DNA from: Escherichia coli
GTDB taxonomy: Bacteria; Pseudomonadota; Gammaproteobacteria; Enterobacterales; Enterobacteriaceae
Direction: 5' to 3' (one strand)
DNA length: 64,000 nucleotides
Assembly (NCBI RefSeq): GCF_003334785.1
Contig: NZ_QOWV01000011.1
The notes beneath the pieces are model-generated. The model saw only the letters and a list, made by a program, of their open reading frames with translations, searched no databases and was not told where the DNA came from. Each line of letters begins with the position of its first letter. Position 1 is the stretch's first letter. The position numbers and the translations under genes were made by a program. This document shows, piece after piece, positions 1,803 through 21,040 of this stretch.

Positions 1803-2711
1803 ATGGATCAAATACGACTTACTCACCTGCGGCAACTGGAGGCGGAAAGCATCCACATTATTCGCGAGGTGGCGGCAGAATTCTCAAATCCGGTGATGCT
1901 CTACTCTATCGGTAAAGATTCCAGCGTCATGCTGCATCTGGCGCGCAAGGCGTTTTATCCAGGTACGCTGCCTTTCCCGTTGCTGCATGTCGATACCGGC
2001 TGGAAATTCCGCGAGATGTATGAGTTCCGCGATCGTACGGCGAAAGCCTACGGCTGCGAGCTGCTGGTGCATAAAAACCCGGAAGGCGTGGCGATGGGGA
2101 TTAATCCATTCGTGCACGGCAGCGCGAAACATACCGATATTATGAAAACTGAAGGCCTGAAACAGGCGCTGAACAAATACGGTTTTGATGCCGCCTTCGG
2201 TGGTGCGCGCCGTGACGAAGAGAAATCCCGCGCTAAAGAGCGAATCTACTCTTTCCGTGACCGCTTCCATCGCTGGGATCCGAAAAATCAGCGCCCAGAG
2301 CTGTGGCACAACTACAACGGGCAAATTAACAAAGGCGAAAGCATCCGCGTCTTCCCGCTCTCTAACTGGACCGAGCAGGATATCTGGCAATACATCTGGC
2401 TGGAAAATATCGACATTGTGCCGCTGTATCTCGCTGCGGAACGTCCGGTTCTGGAACGCGACGGTATGTTGATGATGATTGATGACAACCGTATCGACCT
2501 GCAACCGGGCGAAGTGATTAAAAAACGGATGGTGCGTTTCCGTACGCTGGGCTGCTGGCCGCTGACCGGTGCGGTGGAGTCAAATGCACAAACACTACCG
2601 GAGATCATCGAAGAGATGCTGGTTTCTACCACCAGTGAACGTCAGGGCCGCGTGATTGACCGCGACCAGGCGGGGTCTATGGAGCTGAAAAAACGTCAGG
2701 GGTATTTTTAA
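1803..2711 (+). CDS. cysD: Sulfate adenylyltransferase subunit 2, 302 aa
   Basis: Translation [27 protein letters not shown]...; PAPS-reductase-like fold; followed directly by cysN. Confidence 0.96.
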
Positions 2712-2712
2712 G

Positions 2713-4140
2713 ATGAACACCGCACTTGCACAACAAATCGCCAATGAAGGCGGCGTCGAAGCCTGGATGATTGCGCAACAACATAAAAGCCTGCTGCGTT
2801 TTCTGACCTGTGGTAGCGTCGATGACGGCAAAAGTACCCTGATTGGTCGCCTGCTGCACGATACCCGCCAAATCTACGAAGATCAGCTCTCATCGCTGCA
2901 TAACGACAGTAAACGTCACGGCACCCAGGGCGAAAAGCTGGATCTGGCACTGCTGGTGGACGGCCTGCAAGCTGAGCGCGAACAGGGCATCACCATTGAC
3001 GTGGCTTACCGCTATTTCTCTACCGAGAAGCGTAAATTTATTATCGCCGACACCCCAGGGCACGAGCAGTACACCCGCAATATGGCGACTGGCGCATCGA
3101 CATGTGAACTGGCGATCTTACTGATCGATGCCCGTAAAGGCGTGCTCGATCAAACCCGTCGTCACAGTTTTATCTCCACACTGTTGGGGATCAAACATCT
3201 GGTCGTGGCGATCAACAAAATGGATCTGGTGGATTACAGTGAAAAGACGTTCACCCGTATTCGTGAAGATTATCTGACCTTTGCCGGGCAGCTGCCGGGT
3301 AATCTGGATATCCGCTTTGTGCCGCTCTCTGCACTGGAAGGCGACAACGTGGCTTCGCAAAGTGAAAGTATGGCGTGGTACAGCGGTCCAACACTGCTCG
3401 AAGTGCTGGAAACCGTGGAGATCCAGCGAGTGGTGGATGCTCAGCCAATGCGCTTCCCGGTGCAGTACGTTAATCGCCCGAATCTCGATTTTCGTGGTTA
3501 CGCCGGAACGCTGGCATCCGGTCGCGTAGAAGTCGGGCAACGAGTCAAAGTGCTGCCCTCTGGTGTGGAATCAAACGTCGCCCGGATCGTGACTTTTGAT
3601 GGCGATCGCGAAGAAGCCTTTGCCGGAGAAGCGATCACCCTGGTGCTGACGGATGAGATCGACATCAGCCGTGGCGATCTGCTGCTGGCGGCAGACGAAG
3701 CGTTACCAGCTGTGCAGAGCGCGTCGGTGGATGTGGTATGGATGGCGGAACAGCCGCTTTCCCCGGGCCAGAGTTATGACATCAAAATTGCCGGTAAGAA
3801 GACGCGTGCTCGTGTTGATGGCATTCGTTATCAGGTTGATATTAATAACCTTACCCAACGCGAAGTTGAAAACCTGCCGCTGAACGGCATCGGCCTGGTG
3901 GATCTCACTTTTGACGAGCCACTGGTGTTAGATCGTTATCAGCAAAACCCGGTTACCGGTGGGCTGATTTTTATCGATCGCCTGAGCAATGTGACCGTAG
4001 GTGCCGGTATGGTGCATGAGCCAGTTAGCCAGGCAACTGCTGCGCCATCTGAATTTAGTGCATTCGAACTGGAATTGAATGCCCTGGTTCGCCGCCACTT
4101 TCCACACTGGGGCGCGCGCGATTTGCTGGGGGATAAATAA
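2713..4140 (+). CDS. cysN: Sulfate adenylyltransferase subunit 1 (GTPase), 475 aa
   Basis: GTP-binding motifs ([18 protein letters not shown]); starts 2 nt after the cysD stop. Confidence 0.96.
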
Positions 4141-4745
4141 TGGCGCTGCATGACGAAAACGTCGTCTGGCATAGCCATCCGGTCACTGTGCAACAACGCG
4201 AGCTACACCACGGTCATCGTGGTGTAGTGCTGTGGTTTACCGGCCTCTCCGGGTCCGGTAAATCAACGGTCGCCGGGGCGCTGGAGGAGGCGTTACATAA
4301 ACTCGGCGTCAGTACGTATCTGCTGGATGGCGATAATGTTCGCCACGGATTATGCAGCGATCTCGGTTTTAGCGATGCCGATCGTAAAGAGAATATCCGT
4401 CGCGTCGGTGAAGTGGCGAATTTGATGGTTGAAGCCGGACTGGTGGTGCTGACCGCATTTATCTCGCCACACCGCGCCGAACGCCAGATGGTTCGTGAAC
4501 GCGTAGGAGAAGGGCGCTTTATCGAAGTGTTTGTCGATACGCCGCTGGCGATTTGCGAAGCCCGCGATCCAAAAGGCTTATATAAGAAAGCGCGTGCCGG
4601 TGAACTGCGCTACTTTACGGGAATAGATTCCGTTTACGAAGCGCCTGAATCGGCAGAAATTCATCTCAATGGTGAACAATTAGTAACAAATTTGGTACAG
4701 CAATTATTAGATCTGTTGAGACAGAACGATATTATCAGATCCTGA
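4140..4745 (+). CDS. cysC: Adenylylsulfate (APS) kinase, 201 aa
   Basis: P-loop GLSGSGKST; start overlaps the cysN stop (TAATG), suggesting translational coupling. Confidence 0.96.
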
Positions 4746-4794
4746 GACACCACCGGGTTTCCATGCCCGGTTCGTCAAAGTAACAGGATCAAAT

Positions 4795-5118
4795 ATGCGT
4801 AATAGCCATAACATTACACTAACAAATAACGACAGCCTTACTGAGGATGAAGAAACCACATGGTCACTGCCTGGTGCCGTGGTCGGTTTTATCTCCTGGT
4901 TATTTGCGCTGGCGATGCCGATGTTGATTTATGGCTCTAACACGCTGTTCTTCTTTATCTACACCTGGCCTTTCTTTCTTGCGCTGATGCCCGTCGCGGT
5001 AGTGGTGGGGATTGCGCTGCATTCATTGATGGACGGAAAGCTACGCTACAGTATTGTTTTCACCCTGGTGACAGTAGGCATTATGTTTGGCGCACTGTTT
5101 ATGTGGCTACTGGGCTAA
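4795..5118 (+). CDS. ygbE: Small inner-membrane protein of unknown function (DUF3561-like), 107 aa
   Basis: Three predicted hydrophobic helices; conserved position between cysC and ftsB. Confidence 0.85.
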   Translation: MRNSHNITLTNNDSLTEDEETTWSLPGAVVGFISWLFALAMPMLIYGSNTLFFFIYTWPFFLALMPVAVVVGIALHSLMDGKLRYSIVFTLVTVGIMFGALFMWLLG

Positions 5119-5311
5119 TTTGTACTTTCCCGTCTCCTCTGTTCATAATTCAAACCGTAACTAATAATGAGATTATGTTCTGCACGCCCTGGGTATACGT
5201 AACAATGGACAAATGTGGTACATTTGCCCGCGTTGTCGCGGTATCCCCAACAGAGGATGTAGAGTCGTCTTCGGATGCATGGGATGATGATGCCGTTTTT
5301 CAGGGGGCAGG

Positions 5312-5623
5312 ATGGGTAAACTAACGCTGCTGTTGCTGGCTATTCTGGTCTGGCTACAGTATTCGCTGTGGTTCGGTAAGAACGGTATACATGACTATAC
5401 CCGCGTCAATGATGATGTGGCGGCACAGCAAGCTACAAACGCGAAACTTAAAGCGCGAAACGATCAACTTTTTGCCGAAATTGACGATCTCAATGGCGGC
5501 CAGGAGGCGCTCGAAGAGCGTGCGCGTAATGAACTCAGCATGACCAGGCCGGGCGAAACTTTTTATCGTCTGGTGCCTGACGCGTCGAAGCGCGCACAGT
5601 CTGCGGGGCAAAACAATCGATAA
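5312..5623 (+). CDS. ftsB: Cell division protein FtsB, 103 aa
   Basis: N-terminal TM helix plus coiled coil ([25 protein letters not shown]...). Confidence 0.95.
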
Positions 5624-5641
5624 ATCAGCCCGGGAATTAAC

Positions 5642-6352
5642 ATGGCAACCACTCATTTGGATGTTTGCGCCGTGGTTCCGGCGGCCGGATTTGGCCGTCG
5701 AATGCAAACGGAATGTCCTAAGCAATATCTCTCAATCGGTAATCAAACCATTCTTGAACACTCGGTGCATGCGCTGCTGGCGCATCCCCGGGTGAAACGA
5801 GTCGTCATTGCCATAAGTCCTGGCGATAGCCGTTTTGCACAACTTCCTCTGGCGAATCATCCGCAAATCACCGTTGTAGATGGCGGTGATGAGCGTGCCG
5901 ATTCCGTGCTGGCAGGTCTGAAAGCCGCTGGCGACGCGCAGTGGGTATTGGTGCATGACGCCGCTCGTCCTTGTTTGCATCAGGATGACCTCGCGCGATT
6001 GTTGGCGTTGAGCGAAACCAGCCGCACGGGGGGGATCCTCGCCGCACCAGTGCGCGATACTATGAAACGTGCCGAACCGGGCAAAAATGCCATTGCTCAT
6101 ACCGTTGATCGCAACGGCTTATGGCACGCGCTGACGCCGCAATTTTTCCCTCGTGAGCTGTTACATGACTGTCTGACGCGCGCTCTAAATGAAGGCGCGA
6201 CTATTACCGACGAAGCCTCGGCGCTGGAATATTGCGGATTCCATCCTCAGTTGGTCGAAGGCCGTGCGGATAACATTAAAGTCACGCGCCCGGAAGATTT
6301 GGCACTGGCCGAGTTTTACCTCACCCGAACCATCCATCAGGAGAATACATAA
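5642..6352 (+). CDS. ispD: 2-C-methyl-D-erythritol 4-phosphate cytidylyltransferase, 236 aa
   Basis: Translation [22 protein letters not shown]...; MEP pathway. Confidence 0.96.
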
Positions 6353-7877: not shown

Positions 7878-9239
<1,362 letters not shown>

Positions 9240-9378
9240 AACGTGAGGAAATACCTGGATTTTTCCTGGTTATTTTGCCGCAGGTCAGCGTATCGTGAAC
9301 ATCTTTTCCAGTGTTCAGTAGGGTGCCTTGCACGGTAATTATGTCACTGGTTATTAACCAATTTTTCCTGGGGGATAA

Positions 9379-10518
9379 ATGAGCGCGGGAAGCCCAAAAT
9401 TCACCGTTCGCCGCATTGCGGCTTTGTCACTGGTTTCGCTATGGCTGGCAGGCTGTTCTGACACTTCAAATCCACCGGCACCGGTCAGCTCCGTTAATGG
9501 CAATGCGCCTGCAAATACTAATTCTGGTATGTTGATTACGCCGCCGCCGAAAATGGGGACGACGTCTACAGCGCAGCAACCGCAAATTCAGCCGGTACAG
9601 CAGCCACAAATTCAGGCTACTCAACAACCGCAAATCCAGCCAGTGCAGCCAGTAGCTCAGCAGCCGGTACAGATGGAAAACGGACGCATCGTCTATAACC
9701 GTCAGTATGGGAACATTCCGAAAGGCAGTTATAGCGGCAGTACCTATACCGTGAAAAAAGGCGACACACTTTTCTATATCGCCTGGATTACTGGCAACGA
9801 TTTCCGTGACCTTGCTCAGCGCAACAATATTCAGGCACCATACGCGCTGAACGTTGGTCAGACCTTGCAGGTGGGTAATGCTTCCGGTACGCCAATCACT
9901 GGCGGAAATGCCATTACCCAGGCCGACGCAGCAGAGCAAGGAGTTGTGATCAAGCCTGCACAAAATTCCACCGTTGCTGTTGCGTCGCAACCGACAATTA
10001 CGTATTCTGAATCTTCGGGTGAACAGAGTGCTAACAAAATGTTGCCGAACAACAAGCCAGCTGCGACCACGGTCACAGCGCCTGTAACGGTACCAACAGC
10101 AAGCACAACCGAGCCAACTGTCAGCAGTACATCAACCAGTACGCCTATCTCCACCTGGCGCTGGCCGACTGAGGGCAAAGTGATCGAAACCTTTGGCGCT
10201 TCTGAGGGGGGCAACAAGGGGATTGATATCGCAGGCAGCAAAGGACAGGCAATTATCGCGACCGCAGATGGCCGCGTTGTTTATGCTGGTAACGCGCTGC
10301 GCGGCTACGGTAATCTGATTATCATCAAACATAATGATGATTACCTGAGTGCCTACGCCCATAACGACACAATGCTGGTCCGGGAACAACAAGAAGTGAA
10401 GGCGGGGCAAAAAATAGCAACCATGGGTAGCACCGGAACCAGTTCAACACGCTTGCATTTTGAAATTCGTTACAAGGGGAAATCCGTAAACCCGCTGCGT
10501 TATTTGCCGCAGCGATAA
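9379..10518 (+). CDS. nlpD: Lipoprotein NlpD (LysM plus degenerate M23 peptidase domain), 379 aa
   Basis: Lipobox LWLAGCS; Q/P-rich repeat [25 protein letters not shown]; M23-like C-terminal region. Confidence 0.95.
9980..10008 (+). promoter_or_regulatory. Candidate major rpoS promoter inside nlpD (-35 TTGCGT, 17-bp spacer, -10 TATTCT)
   Basis: Hexamers read directly; predicted start is about 566 nt upstream of the rpoS ATG, matching the long rpoS 5' UTR as I recall it. Confidence 0.55.
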
Positions 10519-10580
10519 ATCGGCGGAACCAGGCTTTTGCTTGAATGTTCCGTCAAGGGATCACGGGTAGGAGCCACCTT

Positions 10581-11573
10581 ATGAGTCAGAATACGCTGAA
10601 AGTTCATGATTTAAATGAAGATGCGGAATTTGATGAGAACGGAGTTGAGGTTTTTGACGAAAAGGCCTTAGTAGAAGAGGAACCCAGTGATAACGATTTG
10701 GCCGAAGAGGAACTGTTATCGCAGGGAGCCACACAGCGTGTGTTGGACGCGACTCAGCTTTACCTTGGTGAGATTGGTTATTCACCACTGTTAACGGCCG
10801 AAGAAGAAGTTTATTTTGCGCGTCGCGCACTGCGTGGAGATGTCGCCTCTCGCCGCCGGATGATCGAGAGTAACTTGCGTCTGGTGGTAAAAATTGCCCG
10901 CCGTTATGGCAATCGTGGTCTGGCGTTGCTGGACCTTATCGAAGAGGGCAACCTGGGGCTGATCCGCGCGGTAGAGAAGTTTGACCCGGAACGTGGTTTC
11001 CGCTTCTCAACATACGCAACCTGGTGGATTCGCCAGACGATTGAACGGGCGATTATGAACCAAACCCGTACTATTCGTTTGCCGATTCACATCGTAAAGG
11101 AGCTGAACGTTTACCTGCGAACCGCACGTGAGTTGTCCCATAAGCTGGACCATGAACCAAGTGCGGAAGAGATCGCAGAGCAACTGGATAAGCCAGTTGA
11201 TGACGTCAGCCGTATGCTTCGTCTTAACGAGCGCATTACCTCGGTAGACACCCCGCTGGGTGGTGATTCCGAAAAAGCGTTGCTGGACATCCTGGCCGAT
11301 GAAAAAGAGAACGGTCCGGAAGATACCACGCAAGATGACGATATGAAGCAGAGCATCGTCAAATGGCTGTTCGAGCTGAACGCCAAACAGCGTGAAGTGC
11401 TGGCACGTCGATTCGGTTTGCTGGGGTACGAAGCGGCAACACTGGAAGATGTAGGTCGTGAAATTGGCCTCACCCGTGAACGTGTTCGCCAGATTCAGGT
11501 TGAAGGCCTGCGCCGTTTGCGTGAAATCCTGCAAACGCAGGGGCTGAATATCGAAGCGCTGTTCCGCGAGTAA
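10581..11573 (+). CDS. rpoS: RNA polymerase sigma factor sigma-S (sigma-38), 330 aa, intact
   Basis: Start set at the ATG giving [21 protein letters not shown]... (ORF track starts 36 nt upstream); sigma-70 family regions 2-4; codon 33 is GAG (Glu), no internal stop. Confidence 0.95.
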
Positions 11574-11588
11574 GTAAGCATCTGTCAG

Positions 11589-11620
11589 AAAGGCCAGTCT
11601 CAAGCGAGGCTGGCCTTTTC
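11589..11620 (+). terminator. Rho-independent terminator after rpoS (AGGCCAG...CTGGCCT stem plus T-run)
   Basis: Hairpin followed by TTTTC, read directly. Confidence 0.7.
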
Positions 11621-11629
11621 TGTGCACAA

Positions 11630-11660
11630 TAAAAGGTCCGATGCCCATCGGACCTTTTTA
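11630..11660. terminator. Bidirectional hairpin terminator between convergent rpoS and ygbN
   Basis: Stem GGTCCGATG/CATCGGACC flanked by A-run on one side and T-run on the other. Confidence 0.65.
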
Positions 11661-11666
11661 TTAAGG

Positions 11667-13031
11667 TCAAATTACCGCCCATACGCACCAGGTAATTAAG
11701 AATCCGGTAAAACCGAGAATGGTCGTTAACACTGTCCAGGTTTTCAGACCGTCTGCTACCGATAACCCCAGATATTTGGTCACAATCCAGAACCCTGAGT
11801 CATTAATATGTGACGCACCAAGCCCACCAAAGCAGGCTGCCAGCGTCACCAATACGCACTGAATCGGATTCAATCCCATCACCGCTTCTGAGAGTAACCC
11901 GCCGGTTGTCAGTATTGCTACGGTTGCTGACCCCTGCGATGCACGCAGCGCCAGTGAAATAATAAATGCGGCTGGTAACAGAGGCAGGTCAATCATTTGT
12001 AGCATGTTGGCAAGGGCTTTGCCGACGCCCGATTCCACCAGCACTTTGCCAAATACCCCTCCAGCACCAGTAACCAAAATCACTACCGCCGCAGTAGGAA
12101 GCGCTGAGCCCATAATGTCGCTGGTGTGTTGTAAGCTCCAGCCGCGACGTAAAGCCAATAACCAGAATGCCAGCACCAGCGCAATCATTAGAGCTACCAT
12201 TGGTGAGCCGATCAGCTGTAGCGTACCAAGCAGGGGATGCGAAGGCGGCATCAGTGTTGCGGAAACCGTACCCGCCATGATAATCGCGATAGGAATAACA
12301 ATTAGCGAGGTGACCAGCGCGACGCCCGGTGGATTTATTTTATCGCTTAATTTTGTCGCGCCTTCCTCACTGGCCGGAGCCAGTTGCATCTGTTCCAGTA
12401 CTTCTACTGACATCGCATATTGGCGCTTATTGATTATTTTCGCTGCAAAGTAGCCAACAACCCCTACGGGAATAGAAATCGCAATACCGATGATGGTTAG
12501 CCAGCCGATGTCTGCGTGGAGTAACCCCGCTGCGGCGACAGGGCCTGGATGCGGCGGTACCGCCACGTGAACAGTGAGCATGATCCCAGCGACAGGCAGG
12601 CCAAATTTGAGTGGCGATATTTTGGCAACCTTGGCAAAACCGTAAATGATTGGCGCAAGAATAATAAAGCCGACATCAAAGAAGACGGGAATACCGAGGA
12701 AGAACGCTGCCAGAGTCAGCGCAGCGATAGTTCGTTTGTCACCTAACTTGCGACTGAAATAATTAGCCAGTGACTCTGCACCACCAGAGTGTTCGATCAT
12801 ACGCCCCAGCATAGCGCCCAGACCAATAATAATAGTGACGGAACCAAGCACACCGCCCATCCCGGCGATCATCACTTTACCCACTTCGCCCGCCGGTATA
12901 CCCGCCGCAAGTGCGACTAACAGGCTGACGAGGAGCAGAGCAACGAATGGTTGTACCTTTGCCTTGATGACCAGCAGCAACAGCATGATTACGCCAGTTA
13001 ACGCAATGCATAACAATGTAATTGTGGACAT
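11667..13031 (-). CDS. ygbN: GntP-family (gluconate-type) permease, probable acid-sugar transporter, 454 aa
   Basis: Multi-TM GntP-like sequence; first gene of the convergent ygbNMLKJ block. Confidence 0.9.
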   Translation of the reverse strand: MSTITLLCIALTGVIMLLLLVIKAKVQPFVALLLVSLLVALAAGIPAGEVGKVMIAGMGGVLGSVTIIIGLGAMLGRMIEHSGGAESLANYFSRKLGDKRTIAALTLAAFFLGIPVFFDVGFIILAPIIYGFAKVAKISPLKFGLPVAGIMLTVHVAVPPHPGPVAAAGLLHADIGWLTIIGIAISIPVGVVGYFAAKIINKRQYAMSVEVLEQMQLAPASEEGATKLSDKINPPGVALVTSLIVIPIAIIMAGTVSATLMPPSHPLLGTLQLIGSPMVALMIALVLAFWLLALRRGWSLQHTSDIMGSALPTAAVVILVTGAGGVFGKVLVESGVGKALANMLQMIDLPLLPAAFIISLALRASQGSATVAILTTGGLLSEAVMGLNPIQCVLVTLAACFGGLGASHINDSGFWIVTKYLGLSVADGLKTWTVLTTILGFTGFLITWCVWAVI

Positions 13032-13119
13032 GGGAAACCCTGTCTGAAAGTTATAGTTAACCTACCCCATCCGTAGATGGGGGGATGTATGGGTACGTTG
13101 TAATTAGGGATTTAACGAA

Positions 13120-13896
13120 TTAGCGCCAGGCGTCAAACCAGCCAAGCCCTTCTTCGGTGAGGCCACGAGGTTTATATTCACAACCGATCCAGCCCTGATA
13201 TCCCACCTCATCGAACAGGCGGAACAGCCACGGATAGTTGATTTCTCCATCGTCCGGTTCATGTCGATCAGGTAGTCCGGCAATTTGTACGTGCGCATAT
13301 TTCCCGGCGTAGTCGCGGATTAAATGCGTCAGGTTGCCATCTACTTTTTGCGCATGAAAAGTATCTAGTTGAATAAACACGTTATCTCGCGCAACTTCTT
13401 CAACAATAGCCAGTGCCTGATACTGGCTGGAGAAGAGATAATGAGGCTTAACGCCGGGGCTGAGTGCTTCAACTAATATTCGCTTGCCGTGTGGCGCAAA
13501 GCGGTCGGCAGCGTAGCGGAGATTATCGATAAATACTGCCCGGTACCGTTCAGCATCTTCGCCAGCGGGCACGACGCCTGCCATCACATGGACTTGTTCA
13601 CAATTGAGCGCCAATGCATATTCCAGTGCCAGGTCGATGTCTGCGTGTGCTTCGTGCTCACGTCCGGGAAGGGCGGATAATCCCCATTCCCCCGCATTAA
13701 TATCTCCGGGAGCGGTATTGAACAGCGCCAGTGTCAGATGGTTTTGCTCCAGTTGCTTTTGGATTTGCAGGGTGGAGTAGTCATAGGGAAACAGAAATTC
13801 CACAGCATCGAACCCGGCTTTTCGCGCTGCGGCGAAGCGTTCAATAAAAGGCACTTCGGTGAACATCATGGATAAATTAGCTGCAAAACGAGGCAT
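13120..13896 (-). CDS. ygbM: Hydroxypyruvate-isomerase-like TIM-barrel enzyme (2-oxo-tetronate isomerase), 258 aa
   Basis: Xylose-isomerase-like TIM barrel family; product name from family membership (OtnI). Confidence 0.88.
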
Positions 13897-13900
13897 TGCA

Positions 13901-14539
13901 TTAACTCCTTAATTCCGCAATTTCACCTGCGGTCAGATAACGGATCGGGCGGTCACCGAGAATAAAAATCAGCTTTGCCGTTTCCTCCAGCTCTTCCATA
14001 TTGTTGGCGGCTTCTTGCAGGCTTTCACCGCAAACCACTGGGCCATGATTTGCCAGTAAAAAAGCCTGATTGTCTGCTGCCAGTTCCGCCAGATCCTGTG
14101 CGATGCGTTTATCGCCCGGTCGGTAATAAGGCACCAGCGGGACATTTCCCATCCGCATCACCACGTATGGTGTGAACGGACGAATAACGTTGCTGCTGTC
14201 CAGCCCTTGCAGGCAGGAAAGCGCCGTCGACCATGTGCTGTGCAAATGCACCACCGCTTTACAACGCGGATTGTTGCGATACAGCGCCAGATGAAAGAGC
14301 ACCTCTTTCGAGGGTTTGTCACCACTTAACCATTCGCCATCCGCGGCGACTTTGGAAAGCCGCTGCGGATCGAGATTGCCCAGGCATGAACCTGTCGGTG
14401 TCGCCAGTAAATTCCCGTCAGGTAAAAGCAGCGACAGATTGCCAGCCGAACCGGTTGCATAGCCGCGCTGAAAGAATGAACTGGCAATCCGCGTCATCTC
14501 CTCTCGCAAAGACTGCTCTACTTTTGCGAAATCGCTCAT
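13901..14539 (-). CDS. ygbL: Class II aldolase/adducin-family enzyme (3-oxo-tetronate 4-phosphate decarboxylase), 212 aa
   Basis: Aldolase-II fold; OtnC-type. Confidence 0.88.
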
Positions 14540-15798
14540 GATAAAAACTCTCTTTGGGCTCGTGAAAAAAAGGCGTCATCACCGAAGTTGCCAGATTTAA
14601 GGGCGAGTGAGACAGGCTTATCCAGTGCGTTTACCCACGGCACGCCGGGGGAAATGGTTGGGCCAATATGAAACCCTTTTATTCCCAGGCTCTGTGTGAC
14701 TACGCCGGAGGTCTCACCGCCTGCGACAATAAAGCGTGTCACGCCTTCCGCTGCTAACCGCGCCGCTAGTTGAGAAAACAGTGTTTCTACTGCCTGACTG
14801 GCTTTTTGTGCACCGTATTGCTGTTGAATTGCTGCCAATGCGTCAGTGCTGGCGGTGGCAAAAACCAGTGGAGCAAGTACACTTTCCTGGCCCAGAACCC
14901 ACTCTGCCAGTTCGTGTGCATAAGCGGCCAGAGTTTCAATTGAGAGGCAGCGTGCCACATCAACTTCACGGGCTGGTGCAATTTGACGGTAATGTGCTAC
15001 CTGGCGGTTGGTCATTTGAGAGCATGAACCGGAGAGCACTACGCCGCGCCCAGCGAGCGGACGCCCTGCTTTGCGAGCCTGGTTACCGTTTTCTTGCGCC
15101 CACTGCCGGGCCAGGCCAATCGCCAGACCAGAACCGCCCGTTACCAGTGGGGCATCGCGCAAGGCTTCTCCCTGAATTTCCAGATGGTGTTCGGTCAGCG
15201 CATCAAGCACCGCGTAGCGGTAGCCCTCTTGCTGTAAGCGAGCCAGCTCTTGACGAACGGCATCCACACCTTGTTCGAAAACATGTGCCGAAACGACGCC
15301 GCAGCGCCCTGTGGATTGCGCTTCAACCAGACGGGGAAGATAGCTGTCGGTCATGGGATTTACCGGGTGATGGCGCATCCCGGATTCGGCCAGCAGTTGA
15401 TTCATTACGAACAAATACCCCTGATAAACCGTACGTCCGTTGACCGGCAGGGCCGGAGAGAAGACCGTAAACGGCGTGTCGAGAGCATCCATTAAGGCAT
15501 CGGTAACCGGGCCAATATTACCTTTCGCCGTACTGTCGAAAGTAGAGCAGTATTTGAAATAGATCTGTTTGCAACCTTGCTGTTGCAACCAGCTCAGAGC
15601 CGCCAGCGATTGCTGTGTGGCTTCAACCACTGGACAGGAGCGCGTTTTCAGGCTGATCACCAGTGCGTCGATTGCTTCCGGCATTTTACCTGTTGGAACA
15701 CCGTTAATTTGTACCGTTGGTAGACCGTTTTCCACCAGAAAACTGGCGATATCCGTCGCGCCGGTAAAATCATCGGCGATAACGCCAATCTTGATCAT
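14536..15798 (-). CDS. ygbK: DUF1537-family four-carbon acid-sugar kinase (3-oxo-tetronate kinase), 420 aa
   Basis: N-terminal MIKIGVIADDFTGATD motif typical of the family; 4-nt overlap with ygbL; OtnK-type. Confidence 0.88.
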   Translation of the reverse strand: MIKIGVIADDFTGATDIASFLVENGLPTVQINGVPTGKMPEAIDALVISLKTRSCPVVEATQQSLAALSWLQQQGCKQIYFKYCSTFDSTAKGNIGPVTDALMDALDTPFTVFSPALPVNGRTVYQGYLFVMNQLLAESGMRHHPVNPMTDSYLPRLVEAQSTGRCGVVSAHVFEQGVDAVRQELARLQQEGYRYAVLDALTEHHLEIQGEALRDAPLVTGGSGLAIGLARQWAQENGNQARKAGRPLAGRGVVLSGSCSQMTNRQVAHYRQIAPAREVDVARCLSIETLAAYAHELAEWVLGQESVLAPLVFATASTDALAAIQQQYGAQKASQAVETLFSQLAARLAAEGVTRFIVAGGETSGVVTQSLGIKGFHIGPTISPGVPWVNALDKPVSLALKSGNFGDDAFFSRAQREFLS

Positions 15799-16703
15799 GA
15801 TTTCGCTCCCGGTAGAGTGATGCCAGAGAAAATCTTGATAACTGCGCTATCGTCTTCTTTCCCGTAACCCGCGTTACTGGCGCTGGTGAACATATTCAAT
15901 GCTGTTGAGGCCAATGGCAGCGGGAAGTGCAGGGCTTTGGCTGTATCGGCAACCAGACCAAGATCCTTAACAAAAATATCGACGGCTGAATGCGGGGTGT
16001 AATCGCCATCCACCACATGACGCATCCGGTTTTCGAACATCCAGGAATTTCCGGCGGCATTGGTCACGACGTCATACATCACATCCAGCGGGATCCCCGC
16101 ACGGGCTGCAAGTGCCATCGCTTCGGCTCCGGCAGCAATATGTACGCCCGCTAACAACTGGTGAATAATTTTTACGGTCGAACCTAGTCCCGGTTCTGCA
16201 CCTATGCGATAAACTTTTCCGGCAACGGCTTCCAGCACGGGTGCCAGTCGTTCAAAGGCAATATCGCTACCGGAGGCCATGATAGTCATTTCACCGTTAG
16301 CGGCTTTTACTGCACCACCAGAAACTGGCGCATCCAGCATTTCCAGATCGAATCCAGCCAGAGCGGTAGCAATTTCTTGCGCATCAGCACTAGCGATAGT
16401 GGAAGAAACCATTACTGCCGTACCGGGTTTCAGATGTTGTGCAACGCCTGTTTCACCAAACAGCACCTGTTTAACCTGGGCCGCATTGACCACCAGCACC
16501 AGCAGTGCGTCCAGTTTTTCGGCAAACATCGCGGCGTTATCAGAAACCCCGCAAGCACCTGCCTCTTTCAACGTAGCGCAGGCATTGCTGTTCAGGTCTG
16601 CGCCCCAGGTAGAAAGACCTGCGCGGACACATGACAGTGCTGCTCCCATTCCCATTGACCCTAAGCCAACGATACCGACATGAAACTCAGATCCCGTTTT
16701 CAT
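15795..16703 (-). CDS. ygbJ: 3-hydroxyisobutyrate-dehydrogenase-family NAD-dependent dehydrogenase (L-threonate dehydrogenase), 302 aa
   Basis: Rossmann motif GIVGLGSMGMGAA; overlaps ygbK start; LtnD-type. Confidence 0.9.
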   Translation of the reverse strand: MKTGSEFHVGIVGLGSMGMGAALSCVRAGLSTWGADLNSNACATLKEAGACGVSDNAAMFAEKLDALLVLVVNAAQVKQVLFGETGVAQHLKPGTAVMVSSTIASADAQEIATALAGFDLEMLDAPVSGGAVKAANGEMTIMASGSDIAFERLAPVLEAVAGKVYRIGAEPGLGSTVKIIHQLLAGVHIAAGAEAMALAARAGIPLDVMYDVVTNAAGNSWMFENRMRHVVDGDYTPHSAVDIFVKDLGLVADTAKALHFPLPLASTALNMFTSASNAGYGKEDDSAVIKIFSGITLPGAKS

Positions 16704-16784
16704 CTGCTCTCCTTGTTAATTTAAGTGATATTTTGTTTGATATTGTGAATATAAGCGCTGGAAGATAACGATATGGTGATCTGA

Positions 16785-16821
16785 TTCACATAAATTAACA
16801 TTGTGTGTTATTTTATGTGAA
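16785..16821. promoter_or_regulatory. Perfect 10-bp inverted repeat TTCACATAAA-N17-TTTATGTGAA in the ygbJ/ygbI divergent intergenic region; candidate DeoR-type operator
   Basis: Read directly; a third related half-site TGTGAATATA lies at 16744-16753. Confidence 0.45.
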
Positions 16822-16898
16822 CTAAGCGTTAGTTGCGCCGCGCACGTTTCGCAGGCAAATAGCGTAGAATGTCAGCAGGACAAAGGAAGGAGCAAAAG

Positions 16899-17666
16899 TT
16901 GATACCCGTAGAGCGTCGCCAAATCATCCTTGAGATGGTAGCTGAAAAAGGCATTGTCAGTATTGCTGAACTAACGGACAGAATGAATGTGTCACATATG
17001 ACCATTCGTCGGGATTTACAAAAACTGGAGCAGCAGGGAGCCGTTGTGCTGGTGTCCGGAGGCGTCCAGTCTCCGGGACGCGTGGCGCATGAACCTTCTC
17101 ATCAGGTAAAAACTGCGCTGGCAATGACGCAAAAAGCGGCTATTGGCAAGCTGGCGGCAAGTCTTGTTCAGCCGGGAAGTTGTATCTATCTGGATGCGGG
17201 AACGACCACGTTAGCGATAGCACAGCATCTGATTCACATGGAGTCACTGACTGTGGTCACAAACGATTTCGTTATTGCGGACTACTTGCTCGACAACAGT
17301 AATTGCACAATTATTCACACTGGCGGTGCAGTGTGTCGGGAAAACCGTTCCTGTGTCGGGGAAGCCGCTGCGACCATGCTGCGCAGCCTGATGATTGATC
17401 AGGCTTTTATTTCTGCATCGTCATGGAGTGTGCGGGGGATTTCTACGCCAGCGGAAGATAAAGTCACGGTGAAACGGGCGATTGCCAGTGCCAGCCGCCA
17501 GCGAGTTTTGGTCTGTGATGCGACGAAATATGGTCAGGTGGCGACATGGCTGGCGTTACCATTAAGCGAGTTTGATCAGATTATTACAGACGACGGTTTG
17601 CCGGAGAGTGCCAGTCGCGCGCTGGTGAAGCAGGATCTCTCTTTGCTGGTAGCGAAAAATGAATAA
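16899..17666 (+). CDS. ygbI: DeoR-family transcriptional regulator, about 255 aa, probable TTG start
   Basis: HTH plus sugar-binding DeoR domain. TTG at 16899 has a strong GGAG Shine-Dalgarno 6 nt upstream; the ORF-track ATG at 16869 has none. Confidence 0.85.
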   Translation: MIPVERRQIILEMVAEKGIVSIAELTDRMNVSHMTIRRDLQKLEQQGAVVLVSGGVQSPGRVAHEPSHQVKTALAMTQKAAIGKLAASLVQPGSCIYLDAGTTTLAIAQHLIHMESLTVVTNDFVIADYLLDNSNCTIIHTGGAVCRENRSCVGEAAATMLRSLMIDQAFISASSWSVRGISTPAEDKVTVKRAIASASRQRVLVCDATKYGQVATWLALPLSEFDQIITDDGLPESASRALVKQDLSLLVAKNE

Positions 17667-17688
17667 TGGCCTGCAATAACACCGGGTT

Positions 17689-17716
17689 ACTCATGCTTCA
17701 CAGAAGAAGCATGAGA
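17689..17716. terminator. Bidirectional hairpin between convergent ygbI and pphB
   Basis: Stem TCATGCTTC/GAAGCATGA with flanking A/T-rich tracts. Confidence 0.55.
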
Positions 17717-18373
17717 CTACTTTATTTTATAAAATGACAGCCGCCCGCTGTTCGGCGATCCGGTATCAATATAAATCTGGTTAGCGAACGTCTGAATGTT
17801 ATCAAACATCATATGTCCAAATATAAAATAATCAGCGCCGTTTATTTGTTGTAACTCGCCATTAAGCGATTTCTGCACACGATCAACAGGCCAGAGTAAT
17901 TCGCTCTCCGCTATTTCTTTACCAAAGAGATATTCACTCCCCGGATAATCTGCATGTGCGATGGCATATTTTATGTTGTCGTTAGTGATTTCAATAATAT
18001 GTGGAAGGTGATGGAATTTCAGCAACAGATCTATTGCCTCTTGTTGCTCTGAATCATTTAAATCGAAAAACCAGTCACCACCGCTGGCAAGCCACATATT
18101 GCCATCGCCAGTTTCGAATGCCTCAAGCGCCATCGCTTCGTGGTTGCCTTTAACCGACGTAAACCAGGGTTGGTTTAGCAGGCGCAGGACGTCAAGACTC
18201 TCCGGTCCACGATCAATATTATCGCCGACAGAAATAAGTAAGTCGATTTCGGGGAAAAAAGAGAGTTGATGTAAGCGGGATTGTAATAACTGATATTCAC
18301 CATGAATATCACCAACGACCCATATATGGCGATAGTGATGGGCATTGATTTTTTGATAGCGTGTAGATGGCAT
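17717..18373 (-). CDS. pphB: Serine/threonine protein phosphatase 2 (calcineurin-like metallophosphatase), 218 aa
   Basis: Metallophosphatase motifs GDIHG, GDNIDRG, GNHE. Confidence 0.93.
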   Translation of the reverse strand: MPSTRYQKINAHHYRHIWVVGDIHGEYQLLQSRLHQLSFFPEIDLLISVGDNIDRGPESLDVLRLLNQPWFTSVKGNHEAMALEAFETGDGNMWLASGGDWFFDLNDSEQQEAIDLLLKFHHLPHIIEITNDNIKYAIAHADYPGSEYLFGKEIAESELLWPVDRVQKSLNGELQQINGADYFIFGHMMFDNIQTFANQIYIDTGSPNSGRLSFYKIK

Positions 18374-18478
18374 GGTTTTACCCTGTAAAATAAGCTTTCC
18401 TATTATACAGGGTGTTTTTATTTTATTCGTCAGTTGTCGTTAATATTCCCGATAGCAAAAGACTATCGGGAATTGTTA

Positions 18479-21040
18479 TTACACCAGGCTCTTCAAGCGA
18501 TAAATCCACTCCAGCGCCTGACGCGGGGTGAGTGAATCCGGATCAAGATTTTCCAGAGCTTCGACCGCAGGCGAAGTTTCTTCTGGTACTGACAGCAAAG
18601 ACATTTGCGTACCATCCACTTGCGTAGCGGCGGCGTTCGGCGAAATGCTTTCCAGCTCACGCAGCTTTTGCCGTGCGCGCTTAATAACCTCTTTTGGCAC
18701 GCCTGCCAGAGCTGCAACCGCCAGGCCGTAGCTTTTGCTCGCCGCGCCATCCTGCACGCTGTGCATAAAGGCAATGGTGTCGCCGTGCTCCAGTGCATCG
18801 AGATGCACGTTAGCGACGCCTTCCATTTTCTCCGGTAACTGGGTCAGCTCGAAATAGTGGGTAGCAAATAACGTCAATGCCTTAATCTTATTCGCCAGAT
18901 TTTCCGCGCACGCCCACGCCAGCGACAGACCATCGTAGGTGGACGTTCCACGCCCGATCTCATCCATTAACACCAGACTGTATTCGGTGGCGTTATGTAA
19001 AATATTGGCGGTTTCAGTCATCTCCACCATAAAGGTTGAGCGCCCGGACGCCAGGTCATCTGCCGCGCCTACGCGGGTAAAGATGCGATCGATAGGTCCA
19101 ATCTCGACTTTTTGTGCCGGTACATAGCTGCCGATGTAGGCCATCAGCGCAATCAGTGCGGTCTGGCGCATATAGGTACTTTTACCGCCCATGTTCGGAC
19201 CGGTGATGATCAACATGCGGCGCTGCGGCGACAGATTCAGCGGGTTGGCGATAAATGGCTCATTCAGTACTTGTTCAACTACCGGATGGCGACCTTCGGT
19301 AATGCGAATGCCCGGTTTATCAATGAAGGTCGGGCAGGTGTAGTTCAGGGTATAGGCCCGTTCCGCCAGGTTAACCAGCACGTCGAGTTCCGCCAGCGCG
19401 CTCGCGCTCTGTTGCAACGCTTCCAGATGCGGCAACAGCAGGTCGAACAGCTCTTCATAAAGCTGTTTTTCCAGTGCCAGTGCTTTGCCTTTTGAGGTGA
19501 GAACTTTATCTTCGTACTCTTTTAGCTCTGGAATGATGTAGCGCTCGGCGTTTTTCAGCGTCTGGCGACGCATGTAGTTGATGGGTGCCAGATGGCTTTG
19601 CCCACGGCTGATTTGAATGTAGTAGCCGTGCACCGCATTAAAGCCAACTTTCAGCGTGTCCAGGCCGGTACGTTCACGCTCGCGGACTTCCAGACGCTCC
19701 AGATAATCGGTCGCGCCGTCAGCCAGCGCGCGCCACTCATCCAGCTCTTCGTTATAGCCCGATGCGATAACACCACCGTCGCGTACCAGCACCGGCGGTG
19801 TGTCGATGATTGCTCGCTCCAGCAGATCGCGCAGCTCGGCAAACTCGCCCATCTTCTCACGTAGCGCCTGTACCGGTGCACTATCGACAGTTTCTAACTG
19901 CGCACGCAGCTCCGGCAGTTGCTGGAAAGCGTGGCGCATACGGGCCAGATCGCGTGGGCGAGCAGTTCGTAAAGCCAGACGTGCCAGAATACGTTCCAGG
20001 TCGCCGACCTGACGCAGTACCGGCTGTAGCCCGGCGGTGAAATCCTGCAATGCGCCAATAGTTTGCTGGCGCTCAAGCAACACGCGGGTATCGCGCACTG
20101 GCATATGCAGCCAGCGTTTCAGCATACGGCTGCCCATCGGCGTGACGGTGCAGTCGAGCACAGAAGCCAGCGTATTTTCCGCACCACCCGCCAGGTTCTG
20201 GGTGATTTCCAGATTACGACGCGTCGCGGCATCCATAATGATGCTGTCCTGCTCACGTTCCATGGTGATGGAACGAATATGCGGCAGAGTCGTACGTTGG
20301 GTATCTTTCGCATACTGCAACAGACAACCGGCAGCACAAAGTCCGCGCGGCGCGTTCTCGACGCCAAAACCGACCAGATCGCGGGTCCCAAATTGCAGAT
20401 TCAACTGCTGGCGCGCGGTGTCGATTTCAAACTCCCACAGCGGGCGACGGCGCAGGCCGCGACGGCCTTCAATTAACGACATTTCAGCAAAATCTTCTGC
20501 ATACAGCAGTTCCGCAGGATTAGTGCGTTGCAGTTCTGCCGCCATCGTTTCGCGGTCAGCCGGTTCGCTCAGGCGAAAACGCCCGGAACTGATATCCAGC
20601 GTCGCGTAGCCGAAACCTTTGCTGTCCTGCCAGATAGCCGCCAGCAGGTTGTCCTGACGCTCCTGCAACAGGGCTTCATCGCTGATGGTGCCTGGCGTAA
20701 CGATACGCACAACTTTGCGCTCAACCGGACCTTTGCTGGTCGCCGGATCGCCAATTTGTTCGCAGATGGCAACGGACTCTCCCTGATTCACCAGTTTGGC
20801 GAGATAGTTTTCCACCGCATGGTAGGGAATCCCCGCCATCGGGATCGGCTCTCCCGCCGAAGCACCGCGTTTGGTCAGTGAAATATCCAGCAGTTGCGAC
20901 GCGCGTTTTGCGTCGTCATAAAACAGTTCATAAAAATCACCCATCCGGTAAAACAGCAGGATCTCGGGATGCTGGGCTTTCAGCCTGAGATACTGCTGCA
21001 TCATGGGCGTATGGGCGTCGAAATTTTCTATTGCACTCAT
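18479..21040 (-). CDS. mutS: DNA mismatch repair protein MutS, 853 aa
   Basis: Full-length ORF with Walker [10 protein letters not shown] and C-terminal domain; begins [40 protein letters not shown]. Confidence 0.97.

Follow-up and report, generated by a model that had tools for sequence, protein, structure and literature searches.

The ygbI-ygbJKLMN cluster of Escherichia coli as a probable L-threonate catabolic operon, with a kinase frameshift in K-12

A four-step bacterial route for the degradation of L-threonate was assigned by Zhang et al. in 2016 and is restated in three later papers, PMC12540250, PMC10580937, and PMC12994016. PMC12994016 credits the 2016 work with otnK knock-outs that lost growth on L-threonate in Pectobacterium atrosepticum SCRI1043 and in Ralstonia eutropha H16, and its scheme draws OtnI, OtnK, and OtnC as common to the L-threonate and D-erythronate branches. 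A regulated version has been described in Brucella, where L-threonate acts as an inducer only when LtnD is functional and where neither acid sugar releases the repressor VdtR in electrophoretic mobility shift assays; the acid sugar has to be metabolized for induction to occur (PMC10580937). Here, we analyzed the ygbI-ygbJKLMN cluster of a 64-kb stretch of E. coli DNA (contig NZ_QOWV01000011.1, hereafter the window) and compared it with these systems.

The locus is already known, as a RefSeq-annotated operon whose pathway was assigned in 2016 and whose repressor was mapped in 2021. In K-12, RefSeq marks the products as “putative,” namely, an L-threonate dehydrogenase, a 3-oxo-tetronate kinase, a decarboxylase, and an isomerase. 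Based on family membership, gene order, synteny, a conserved cis-element, and two terminators, all observed in the present analysis, we conclude that the cluster is probably the version found in Enterobacterales of the four-step operon for L-threonate catabolism, with a DeoR-type repressor. In itself, the locus brings no novelty; the value of the analysis lies in two caveats for experiments with L-threonate, namely, the choice of strain and the operator to target.

Enzyme families and the predicted route

We compared the cluster products with curated NCBIfam equivalog models and set each bit score against the cut-off of its model. All six products exceeded the cut-offs of their specific models and matched them end to end (Table 1), and all models for paralogues (including those for hydroxypyruvate isomerase, tartronate semialdehyde reductase, FucA, and D-threonate kinase) remained under theirs. 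The match of OtnK to NF043035 spanned model positions 1 to 417 of 418, whereas the D-threonate kinase model reached just 132 bits against a cut-off of 450; the Pfam domains SBD_N (residues 4 to 228) and NBD_C (residues 253 to 411) lie in the same protein. YgbJ scored 197 bits (cut-off, 397) as a 2-hydroxy-3-oxopropionate reductase and 155 bits (cut-off, 292) as a 3-hydroxyisobutyrate dehydrogenase (HIBADH), which sets LtnD apart from GarR, GlxR, and HIBADH. Likewise, YgbM fell short of the hydroxypyruvate isomerase model TIGR03234 (298 bits; cut-off, 353), and YgbL reached at most 103 bits on FucA-type models.

Structures in the Protein Data Bank (PDB) include E. coli YgbM itself (1K77) and a YgbL that is from E. 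coli or is near-identical (6VOP; 466 bits across all 212 residues), as well as close homologues of YgbK (3DQQ, 1YZY, and 5DMH) and of YgbJ (3G0O; 498 bits). At the family level, the similarities place OtnK as a 3-oxo-tetronate kinase and LtnD as the enzyme predicted to oxidize L-threonate. The initial annotation, made from the letters of the window, had described a five-gene minus-strand block (GntP permease, triose-phosphate isomerase [TIM]-barrel isomerase, class II aldolase-like decarboxylase, DUF1537 kinase, and dehydrogenase) with a divergent DeoR regulator, and it had linked the block to the four-carbon acid-sugar pathway of the DUF1537 kinases. Both points were borne out: the open reading frames (ORFs) lie where it placed them and are annotated likewise in RefSeq, every product scored above the cut-off of its specific model, and domain searches put no ORF in an unrelated family.

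Some public labels for these families disagree with the assignments. Model NF007441 (PRK09989) calls the TIM-barrel isomerase YgbM an “HPr family phosphocarrier protein,” a label that RefSeq passes to thousands of genomes and that conflicts with the OtnI model, with the hydroxypyruvate isomerase homology, and with PDB 1K77. The Salmonella OtnK structure 3DQQ bears the label “Putative tRNA synthase.”

All four enzyme genes and the transporter gene are colocated and co-oriented, and the arrangement is syntenic with a genetically validated cluster. The order ygbI (divergent), ltnD-otnK-otnC-otnI-gntP is kept in most of 80 loci from other genera, including those of four Pectobacterium species at 62 to 74% identity. 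In the window, there is an overlap of 4 nucleotides (nt) both between ygbJ and ygbK and between the stop of ygbK and the start of ygbL, and ygbL and ygbM are 4 nt apart, a spacing that argues for a single translationally coupled unit. The gap between ygbM and ygbN is longer, at 88 nt. We considered an attenuator or terminator there and rejected it, as the gap holds a 7-bp hairpin without a U-tract and its folding z score is only −1.8.

In this reading, the E. coli substrate, the grouping of the genes into a single operon, the identity of the operator, and that of the inducer are inferred, and the route would run as follows. YgbN would import the acid sugar, here L-threonate, which is a breakdown product of ascorbate. 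YgbJ (LtnD) would oxidize L-threonate at C2 to 2-oxo-tetronate, YgbM (OtnI) would isomerize this to 3-oxo-tetronate, YgbK (OtnK) would phosphorylate the latter with ATP, and YgbL (OtnC) would decarboxylate the resulting 3-oxo-tetronate 4-phosphate to dihydroxyacetone phosphate and CO2. The five genes would be transcribed as one unit, starting at a CRP-dependent promoter that lies in the 195-nt spacer between ygbJ and ygbI. YgbI would repress both this promoter and its own by means of arrays of TGTKA pentamers at 10-bp spacing, and the inducer would be a pathway intermediate, most likely 3-oxo-tetronate 4-phosphate, rather than L-threonate.

The control region and a candidate YgbI operator

Regulation by YgbI has been mapped in K-12, where chromatin immunoprecipitation with exonuclease treatment (ChIP-exo) found a single site between ygbI and ygbJ and where RNA sequencing (RNA-seq) of a ygbI deletion showed derepression of all five genes ygbJKLMN (PMC8464067). 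An iModulon study arrived at the same repressor hypothesis. The NF040890 match of the window protein covers both the N-terminal winged-helix and the C-terminal DeoR sugar-binding domains, a division that is also given in the supplement of PMC8464067. The ygbI gene probably starts at the TTG at 16899 and less likely at the ATG at 16869, given the RefSeq start, the NF040890 alignment (which begins at residue 11 in the longer ORF), and the Shine-Dalgarno sequence AGGAG that precedes the TTG. The ORF positions of the initial annotation are right apart from the upstream ATG that its coordinates imply for ygbI.

Within the spacer, we found a 15-nt element, TGTTAWTTWAWGTGA (TGTKA-N5-TGTKA), in three perfect copies (A, C, and D; site A reads TGTTAATTTAAGTGA) and a weak fourth copy (B). 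No match closer than three mismatches occurs elsewhere in the 64 kb. The pattern was derived from the E. coli spacer sites and was then tested on independent sequence. A Klebsiella-derived ltnD-deoR fragment contains three matches, all in the spacer, versus 0.43 expected. Among 64 non-Escherichia loci with divergent ygbI and ltnD, the spacers hold 96 matches at up to two mismatches, with at least one in 60 of the 64, whereas composition-matched resamples yield 1.4 ± 1.2; the density over the rest of the same loci is 0.029 per kb. The element spreads over Enterobacterales, Pasteurellales, Vibrionales, Aeromonas, and Marinomonas (spacers of loci L009 to L086). Its consensus is a direct repeat of the pentamer TGTKA at 10-bp spacing, at times extended into longer 10-bp-phased arrays, and its preferred places are about 40 nt and about 90 to 110 nt upstream of ltnD. 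This conservation makes the TGTKA-N5-TGTKA element a strong candidate for the YgbI operator. Reporter and footprint work thus has a defined, repeated target with conservation over at least five orders of Gammaproteobacteria.

We considered AT-richness and CRP half-sites as sources of the motif and rejected both. The resampling, which reflects composition, falls far short of the matches seen (1.4 versus 96), and the invariant positions G2, T3, and G12 are those of direct TGTKA repeats, not of the CRP palindrome.

The inverted repeat formed by sites C and D overlaps a sigma-70-like ygbI promoter (−35, TTCACA; −10, TATTTT), the −35 element of which in turn overlaps the CRP site. The reverse complement of the CRP site, tatGGTGAtctgatTCACAta, is identical to the ygbI/ygbJ site reported in a Footprint-seq preprint (PMC12871828), and CRP may be centered at −41.5 of both divergent promoters. 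The 195-nt control region differs from that of K-12 at window position 16771 alone, one base outside the CRP site, with A here and G in K-12.

DeoR-family repressors generally sense phosphorylated intermediates. By analogy with Brucella VdtR and other repressors of this family, 3-oxo-tetronate 4-phosphate is the most likely effector of YgbI. Were it the effector, no induction of the operon would be possible in K-12, the kinase of which is probably inactive.

Two further reports concern this regulator or its spacer. A genomic-SELEX (systematic evolution of ligands by exponential enrichment) peak for FlhDC has been reported between ygbI and ygbJ. In the Reg-Seq preprint (PMC12132413), YgbI and ArcA were enriched on the dicC promoter in DNA-affinity mass spectrometry, which hints at YgbI binding beyond its own locus that ChIP-exo did not see.

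The K-12 kinase allele and alternative substrates

The window encodes a YgbK of 420 residues, whereas that of K-12 MG1655 has 388 residues and is followed by a 91-nt gap. The sole difference within ygbK is a homopolymer that has lost one base in K-12 (C5 to C4; NC_000913.3 near 2863481), with the frame lost at codon 385 and a stop at codon 389. We typed this allele in 5,426 complete E. coli genomes with allele-specific 33-mers in which all 28-nt seed words span the C-run, and counted 3,802 genomes with C5 and 370 with C4. Of the latter, the 60 listed are overwhelmingly K-12 laboratory derivatives (such as MG1655, W3110, DH10B, MC4100, BW25113, J53, and HB101), and the deletion appears specific to the K-12 lineage. 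The segment lost is the end of NBD_C and holds the motifs PGVPW and LALKSGNFG; both are conserved in 3DQQ, 1YZY, and 5DMH and intact in the OtnK of the window. Across 77 orthologues, 47% of positions in the lost tail are at least 90% conserved versus 36% in the rest of OtnK. Judged by this conservation, the K-12 kinase is probably inactive.

We found no paper tying ygbK to a frameshift, in a literature search of incomplete coverage that did not extend to EcoCyc. The K-12 frameshift is the simplest explanation for the division into ygbJK and ygbLM operons in RegulonDB, a division contradicted by an RNA-seq study that found a transcript spanning ygbK and ygbL.

Tests of growth on, or induction by, L-threonate in K-12 are not advisable without repair of otnK, because the kinase is truncated there and because otnK knock-outs abolish growth on L-threonate in two other species. 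An inactive K-12 kinase would also mean that the K-12 phenotypes on tartrate and dihydroxybutyrate are kinase independent. Tentatively, the native function may have been masked: published experiments were all done in K-12 with its truncated OtnK, and it is possible that isolates with the intact allele grow on and are induced by L-threonate, that K-12 does neither unless repaired, and that growth on tartrate or dihydroxybutyrate reflects a kinase-independent side activity. As additions, the frameshift and the conserved candidate operator are modest; with them, what E. coli uses the operon for becomes directly testable in the right strain.

Several points weigh against an L-threonate operon under YgbI. 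The cluster (scored as present at 80% coverage or more) occurs in 4,577 of the 5,426 genomes, leaving 15% without it, and the kinase is frameshifted in K-12, so selection on the cluster in E. coli is not universal. Our literature search, which did not cover the primary Zhang 2016 paper, found no assay of an E. coli cluster enzyme and no growth of E. coli on L-threonate. Derepression in E. coli has given growth phenotypes only with L-tartrate, meso-tartrate, and 2,4-dihydroxybutyrate: on 20 mM L-tartrate, a K-12 ygbI deletion grows and the wild type does not, ygbI loss-of-function mutations arose independently in lines evolved on meso-tartrate, and such mutations were also selected on 2,4-dihydroxybutyrate, according to a review. 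As for the operator, the 15-nt motif was built from E. coli sites and has a GTGA end similar to a CRP half-site, and the published ChIP-exo interval abuts site D and does not cover the inverted repeat. The initial annotation had called the substrate and inducer in E. coli comparatively poorly defined, a fair description given that the K-12 RefSeq names are still “putative” and that experiments in E. coli show only repression by YgbI and tartrate growth upon its loss.

Gao et al. (2021) proposed tartrate catabolism as the physiological role, which we consider improbable. In that route, YgbN imports tartrate, YgbJ oxidizes it to oxaloglycolate, decarboxylation yields hydroxypyruvate or tartronate semialdehyde, and the Hyi-like YgbM together with GarR/GlxR-like dehydrogenases channels the products into glycerate. 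Besides the growth of the deletion strain and the recurrent meso-tartrate mutations, the proposal can draw on the matches of YgbM to TIGR03234 (298 bits) and of YgbJ to the tartronate semialdehyde reductase model PRK11559 (197 bits), both of which are below the cut-offs, and on the truncated kinase of the strain in which the phenotype was seen; for the evolved lines, reversion of ygbK was not reported either, so the kinase is not needed for the phenotype. However, the lack of wild-type growth implies that tartrate is not an inducer of the operon, and the authors of the evolution study themselves call the activity a promiscuous side activity. The route also leaves no role for the kinase or the phospho-decarboxylase, yet both keep strict synteny throughout Gammaproteobacteria, and at least 3,802 E. 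coli genomes have an intact kinase. Finally, every enzyme scores far higher on the tetronate models than on those for glyoxylate or tartronate metabolism.

Somewhat less probable still is that the cluster degrades D-erythronate in addition to, or instead of, L-threonate. This would be compatible with the sharing of OtnI, OtnK, and OtnC between the branches in the published scheme and with the promiscuity of some LtnD homologues, such as the Agrobacterium radiobacter enzyme, which also takes L-idonate (PMC12994016). The D-erythronate branch nevertheless needs its own dehydrogenase, DenD, of short-chain dehydrogenase/reductase or epimerase type. This enzyme is easily recognized by model NF043036, on which ORFs between otnI and gntP score 480 bits in Rodentibacter and 471 bits in Aeromonas, and 25 of the 80 related clusters carry a DenD-like gene, with no Escherichia-, Pantoea-, Pectobacterium-, or Serratia-type cluster among them. 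A tblastn search with a DenD validated at 480 bits found no match in the 64-kb window, and all six ORFs of the cluster are assigned otherwise. In Brucella, loss of LtnD abolishes the use of L-threonate and spares that of D-erythronate (PMC10580937), which indicates that the first dehydrogenase sets the usable acid sugar. Because DenD is absent from both the cluster and the window, the gene content indicates that the E. coli cluster encodes the L-threonate branch only. Of the “L-threonate / D-erythronate type” given in the initial annotation, the first half is retained and the second dropped.

The junction with rpoS and comparison with related systems

The segment from 10500 to 18500 of the window matches several complete E. 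coli chromosomes at 100% identity and has at least a partial match in 5,422 of the 5,426 genomes. Over the matching chromosomes, RefSeq gives the order nlpD, rpoS, ygbN, ygbM, ygbL (otnC), otnK, ltnD, ygbI, pphB, mutS. The features of the locus are collected in Table 1.

Table 1. Features of the ygb locus, in window coordinates; scores are bits/model cut-off
Feature	Position	Strand	Description
rpoS	10581..11573	+	convergent neighbor of ygbN; context
Hairpin H1	11586..11622	+	rpoS intrinsic terminator; stem GGCCAG..CUGGCC, then UUUUCU; −25.9 kcal/mol, z −5.7
Hairpin H2	11631..11658	−	ygbN terminator; stem GGUCCGAUG..CAUCGGACC, A-run on one side and T-run on the other; about −17 kcal/mol
ygbN	11667..13031	−	GntP-family permease, presumed L-threonate:H+ symporter; NF007332 827/524
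ygbM (otnI)	13120..13896	−	2-oxo-tetronate isomerase family, TIM barrel; NF043033 396/325
ygbL (otnC)	13901..14539	−	class II aldolase fold, decarboxylase; NF043034 335/250
ygbK (otnK)	14536..15798	−	3-oxo-tetronate kinase family, DUF1537, 420 aa; NF043035 598/350
C5 homopolymer in otnK	14647..14651	−	C4 in K-12
ygbJ (ltnD)	15795..16703	−	L-threonate 2-dehydrogenase, beta-hydroxyacid dehydrogenase family; NF043037 473/350
ygbJ-ygbI control region	16704..16898		195-nt divergent spacer
Candidate YgbI operator site A	16714..16728	+	perfect copy; adjoins the ygbJ ribosome-binding site
Candidate operator copy B	16726..16740		weaker, fourth copy
CRP site	16772..16792		reverse complement identical to published Footprint-seq site
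Inverted repeat of candidate sites C and D	16785..16821		C, 16786-16800 (−); D, 16806-16820 (+)
Published YgbI ChIP-exo interval	16821..16851		mapped from K-12 NC_000913.2 2859304-2859334 by coordinate calculation
ygbI	16899..17666	+	DeoR-family repressor, probable TTG start, 255 aa; NF040890 482/400
Single 10-bp hairpin	17690..17715		between convergent ygbI and pphB

The rpoS gene converges on ygbN over a 93-nt gap, which folds into two hairpins. Both were obtained by direct folding and missed by a consensus terminator scan, probably because extension of the stems consumed the T-run. H2 could act in both directions. H1 stays behind rpoS in all four strain layouts (loci L002 to L005), and H2 travels with ygbN in two of them, the K-12-type (II) and the decarboxylase-island (IV) layouts, and is absent in B2 strains. 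The layouts comprise the direct junction, as in the window; a 2.9-kb island of a MarR gene and hydroxyarylic acid decarboxylase genes between rpoS and ygbN; a 2.1-kb island of flavodoxin and metallo-beta-lactamase (MBL) hydrolase genes in B2 strains; and, in O157:H7, the decarboxylase island without the ygb cluster. Genomes of the O157:H7 type match the cluster query through its first 46 nt only, up to window position 11619, in the T-tract behind the stem of H1. In the 2.9-kb island strains (L003, 4440 to 4485), H2 stands 3 nt past the stop of the decarboxylase subunit D gene and just before the end of ygbN, and there one hairpin does serve two convergent genes.

Least probable, and very unlikely, is that this tail-to-tail junction is a functional unit in which one bidirectional terminator couples the two transcript ends: the gap is just 93 nt, A-rich and T-rich flanks on both hairpins would let each terminate either way, and in layout IV H2 alone separates the subunit D gene from ygbN, but there are two stable hairpins instead of one, H1 remains with rpoS despite a 2.1- or 2.9-kb island or the absence of the ygb genes while B2 strains lack H2, just 1,944 of the 5,426 genomes (36%) have the direct junction, and none of the 80 loci of other genera has rpoS within 7 kb of ltnD. 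The convergence described in the initial annotation is real in the window, and the significance it implied is not sustained. The same applies to its claim that the tail of the cluster shares a bidirectional terminator with rpoS, as the two hairpins are independent and separable across strains. With the D-erythronate label, for which no DenD was found, these are the claims that fail. Otherwise, the observation was real and its interpretation mostly right, for an operon that was known and annotated.

A few observations concern the surroundings of the cluster. RpoS of the window differs from that of K-12 MG1655 only at codon 33 (window positions 10677 to 10679), with Glu33 here and Gln33 in K-12. 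A weak intragenic FliA (sigma-28) site reported from chromatin immunoprecipitation sequencing 5′ of ygbK in K-12 corresponds to TAAGGATCTTGGTCTGGTTGCCGATACA at 15942 to 15969 of the window, on the minus strand within ygbJ. An Rfam scan of window positions 9000 to 19000 (E ≤ 1) returned a sole match, to a Streptococcus small RNA at chance level (27.7 bits; gathering threshold, 50). On the Klebsiella pneumoniae plasmid NZ_CP011982.1 (L006), positions 1852 to 5794 are a Klebsiella chromosomal fragment with a partial otnK, ltnD, and a ygbI-like DeoR gene beside a LEN/SHV-type beta-lactamase gene; part of the catabolic cluster thus hitchhikes with a resistance gene. An ltnD-ygbI query matched 1,387 plasmid records, mainly from Klebsiella, Enterobacter, Escherichia, and Citrobacter, along with some rhizobial replicons.

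The rpoS side of the locus belongs to the polymorphic mutS-rpoS (o454-nlpD) region, for which Ewers et al. (2014; PMC4209514) described patterns I to IV. The window is of the K-12/ECOR-A type, pattern II. All four patterns were recovered in the complete genomes, and the layouts are the same known polymorphism, counted here in 5,426 genomes.

For the pathway itself, the closest known systems are those of P. atrosepticum SCRI1043 and R. eutropha (Cupriavidus necator) H16, which share the four enzyme families with the E. coli cluster at the level of NCBIfam equivalogs. Growth phenotypes of otnK mutants come from those two species. The Pectobacterium loci match in gene order and in the divergent DeoR regulator, at the 62 to 74% identity given above, and both they and the E. 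coli cluster lack DenD; the R. eutropha cluster differs in that it also encodes DenD (per the comparison in PMC10580937). The Brucella operon (PMC10580937) resembles the E. coli locus in having a DeoR-type repressor that acts at the ltnD promoter and whose deletion causes derepression; VdtR acts through several binding sites, and the E. coli spacer holds several candidate sites. In contrast, its regulator gene lies within the operon and not divergent from it, DenD is present, a major facilitator superfamily transporter replaces the GntP permease, and the system has a role in virulence in the placenta. Clusters of the Pasteurellaceae/Haemophilus type (order ltnD-otnK-otnC-otnI-denD-gntP; PDB 1YZY is HI1011 according to its label) share with E. 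coli the core order, a divergent ygbI-like regulator, and the TGTKA-N5-TGTKA element in the spacer, but they carry DenD, in copies that are 75 to 92% identical, and their GntP permease is 31 to 34% identical to YgbN.

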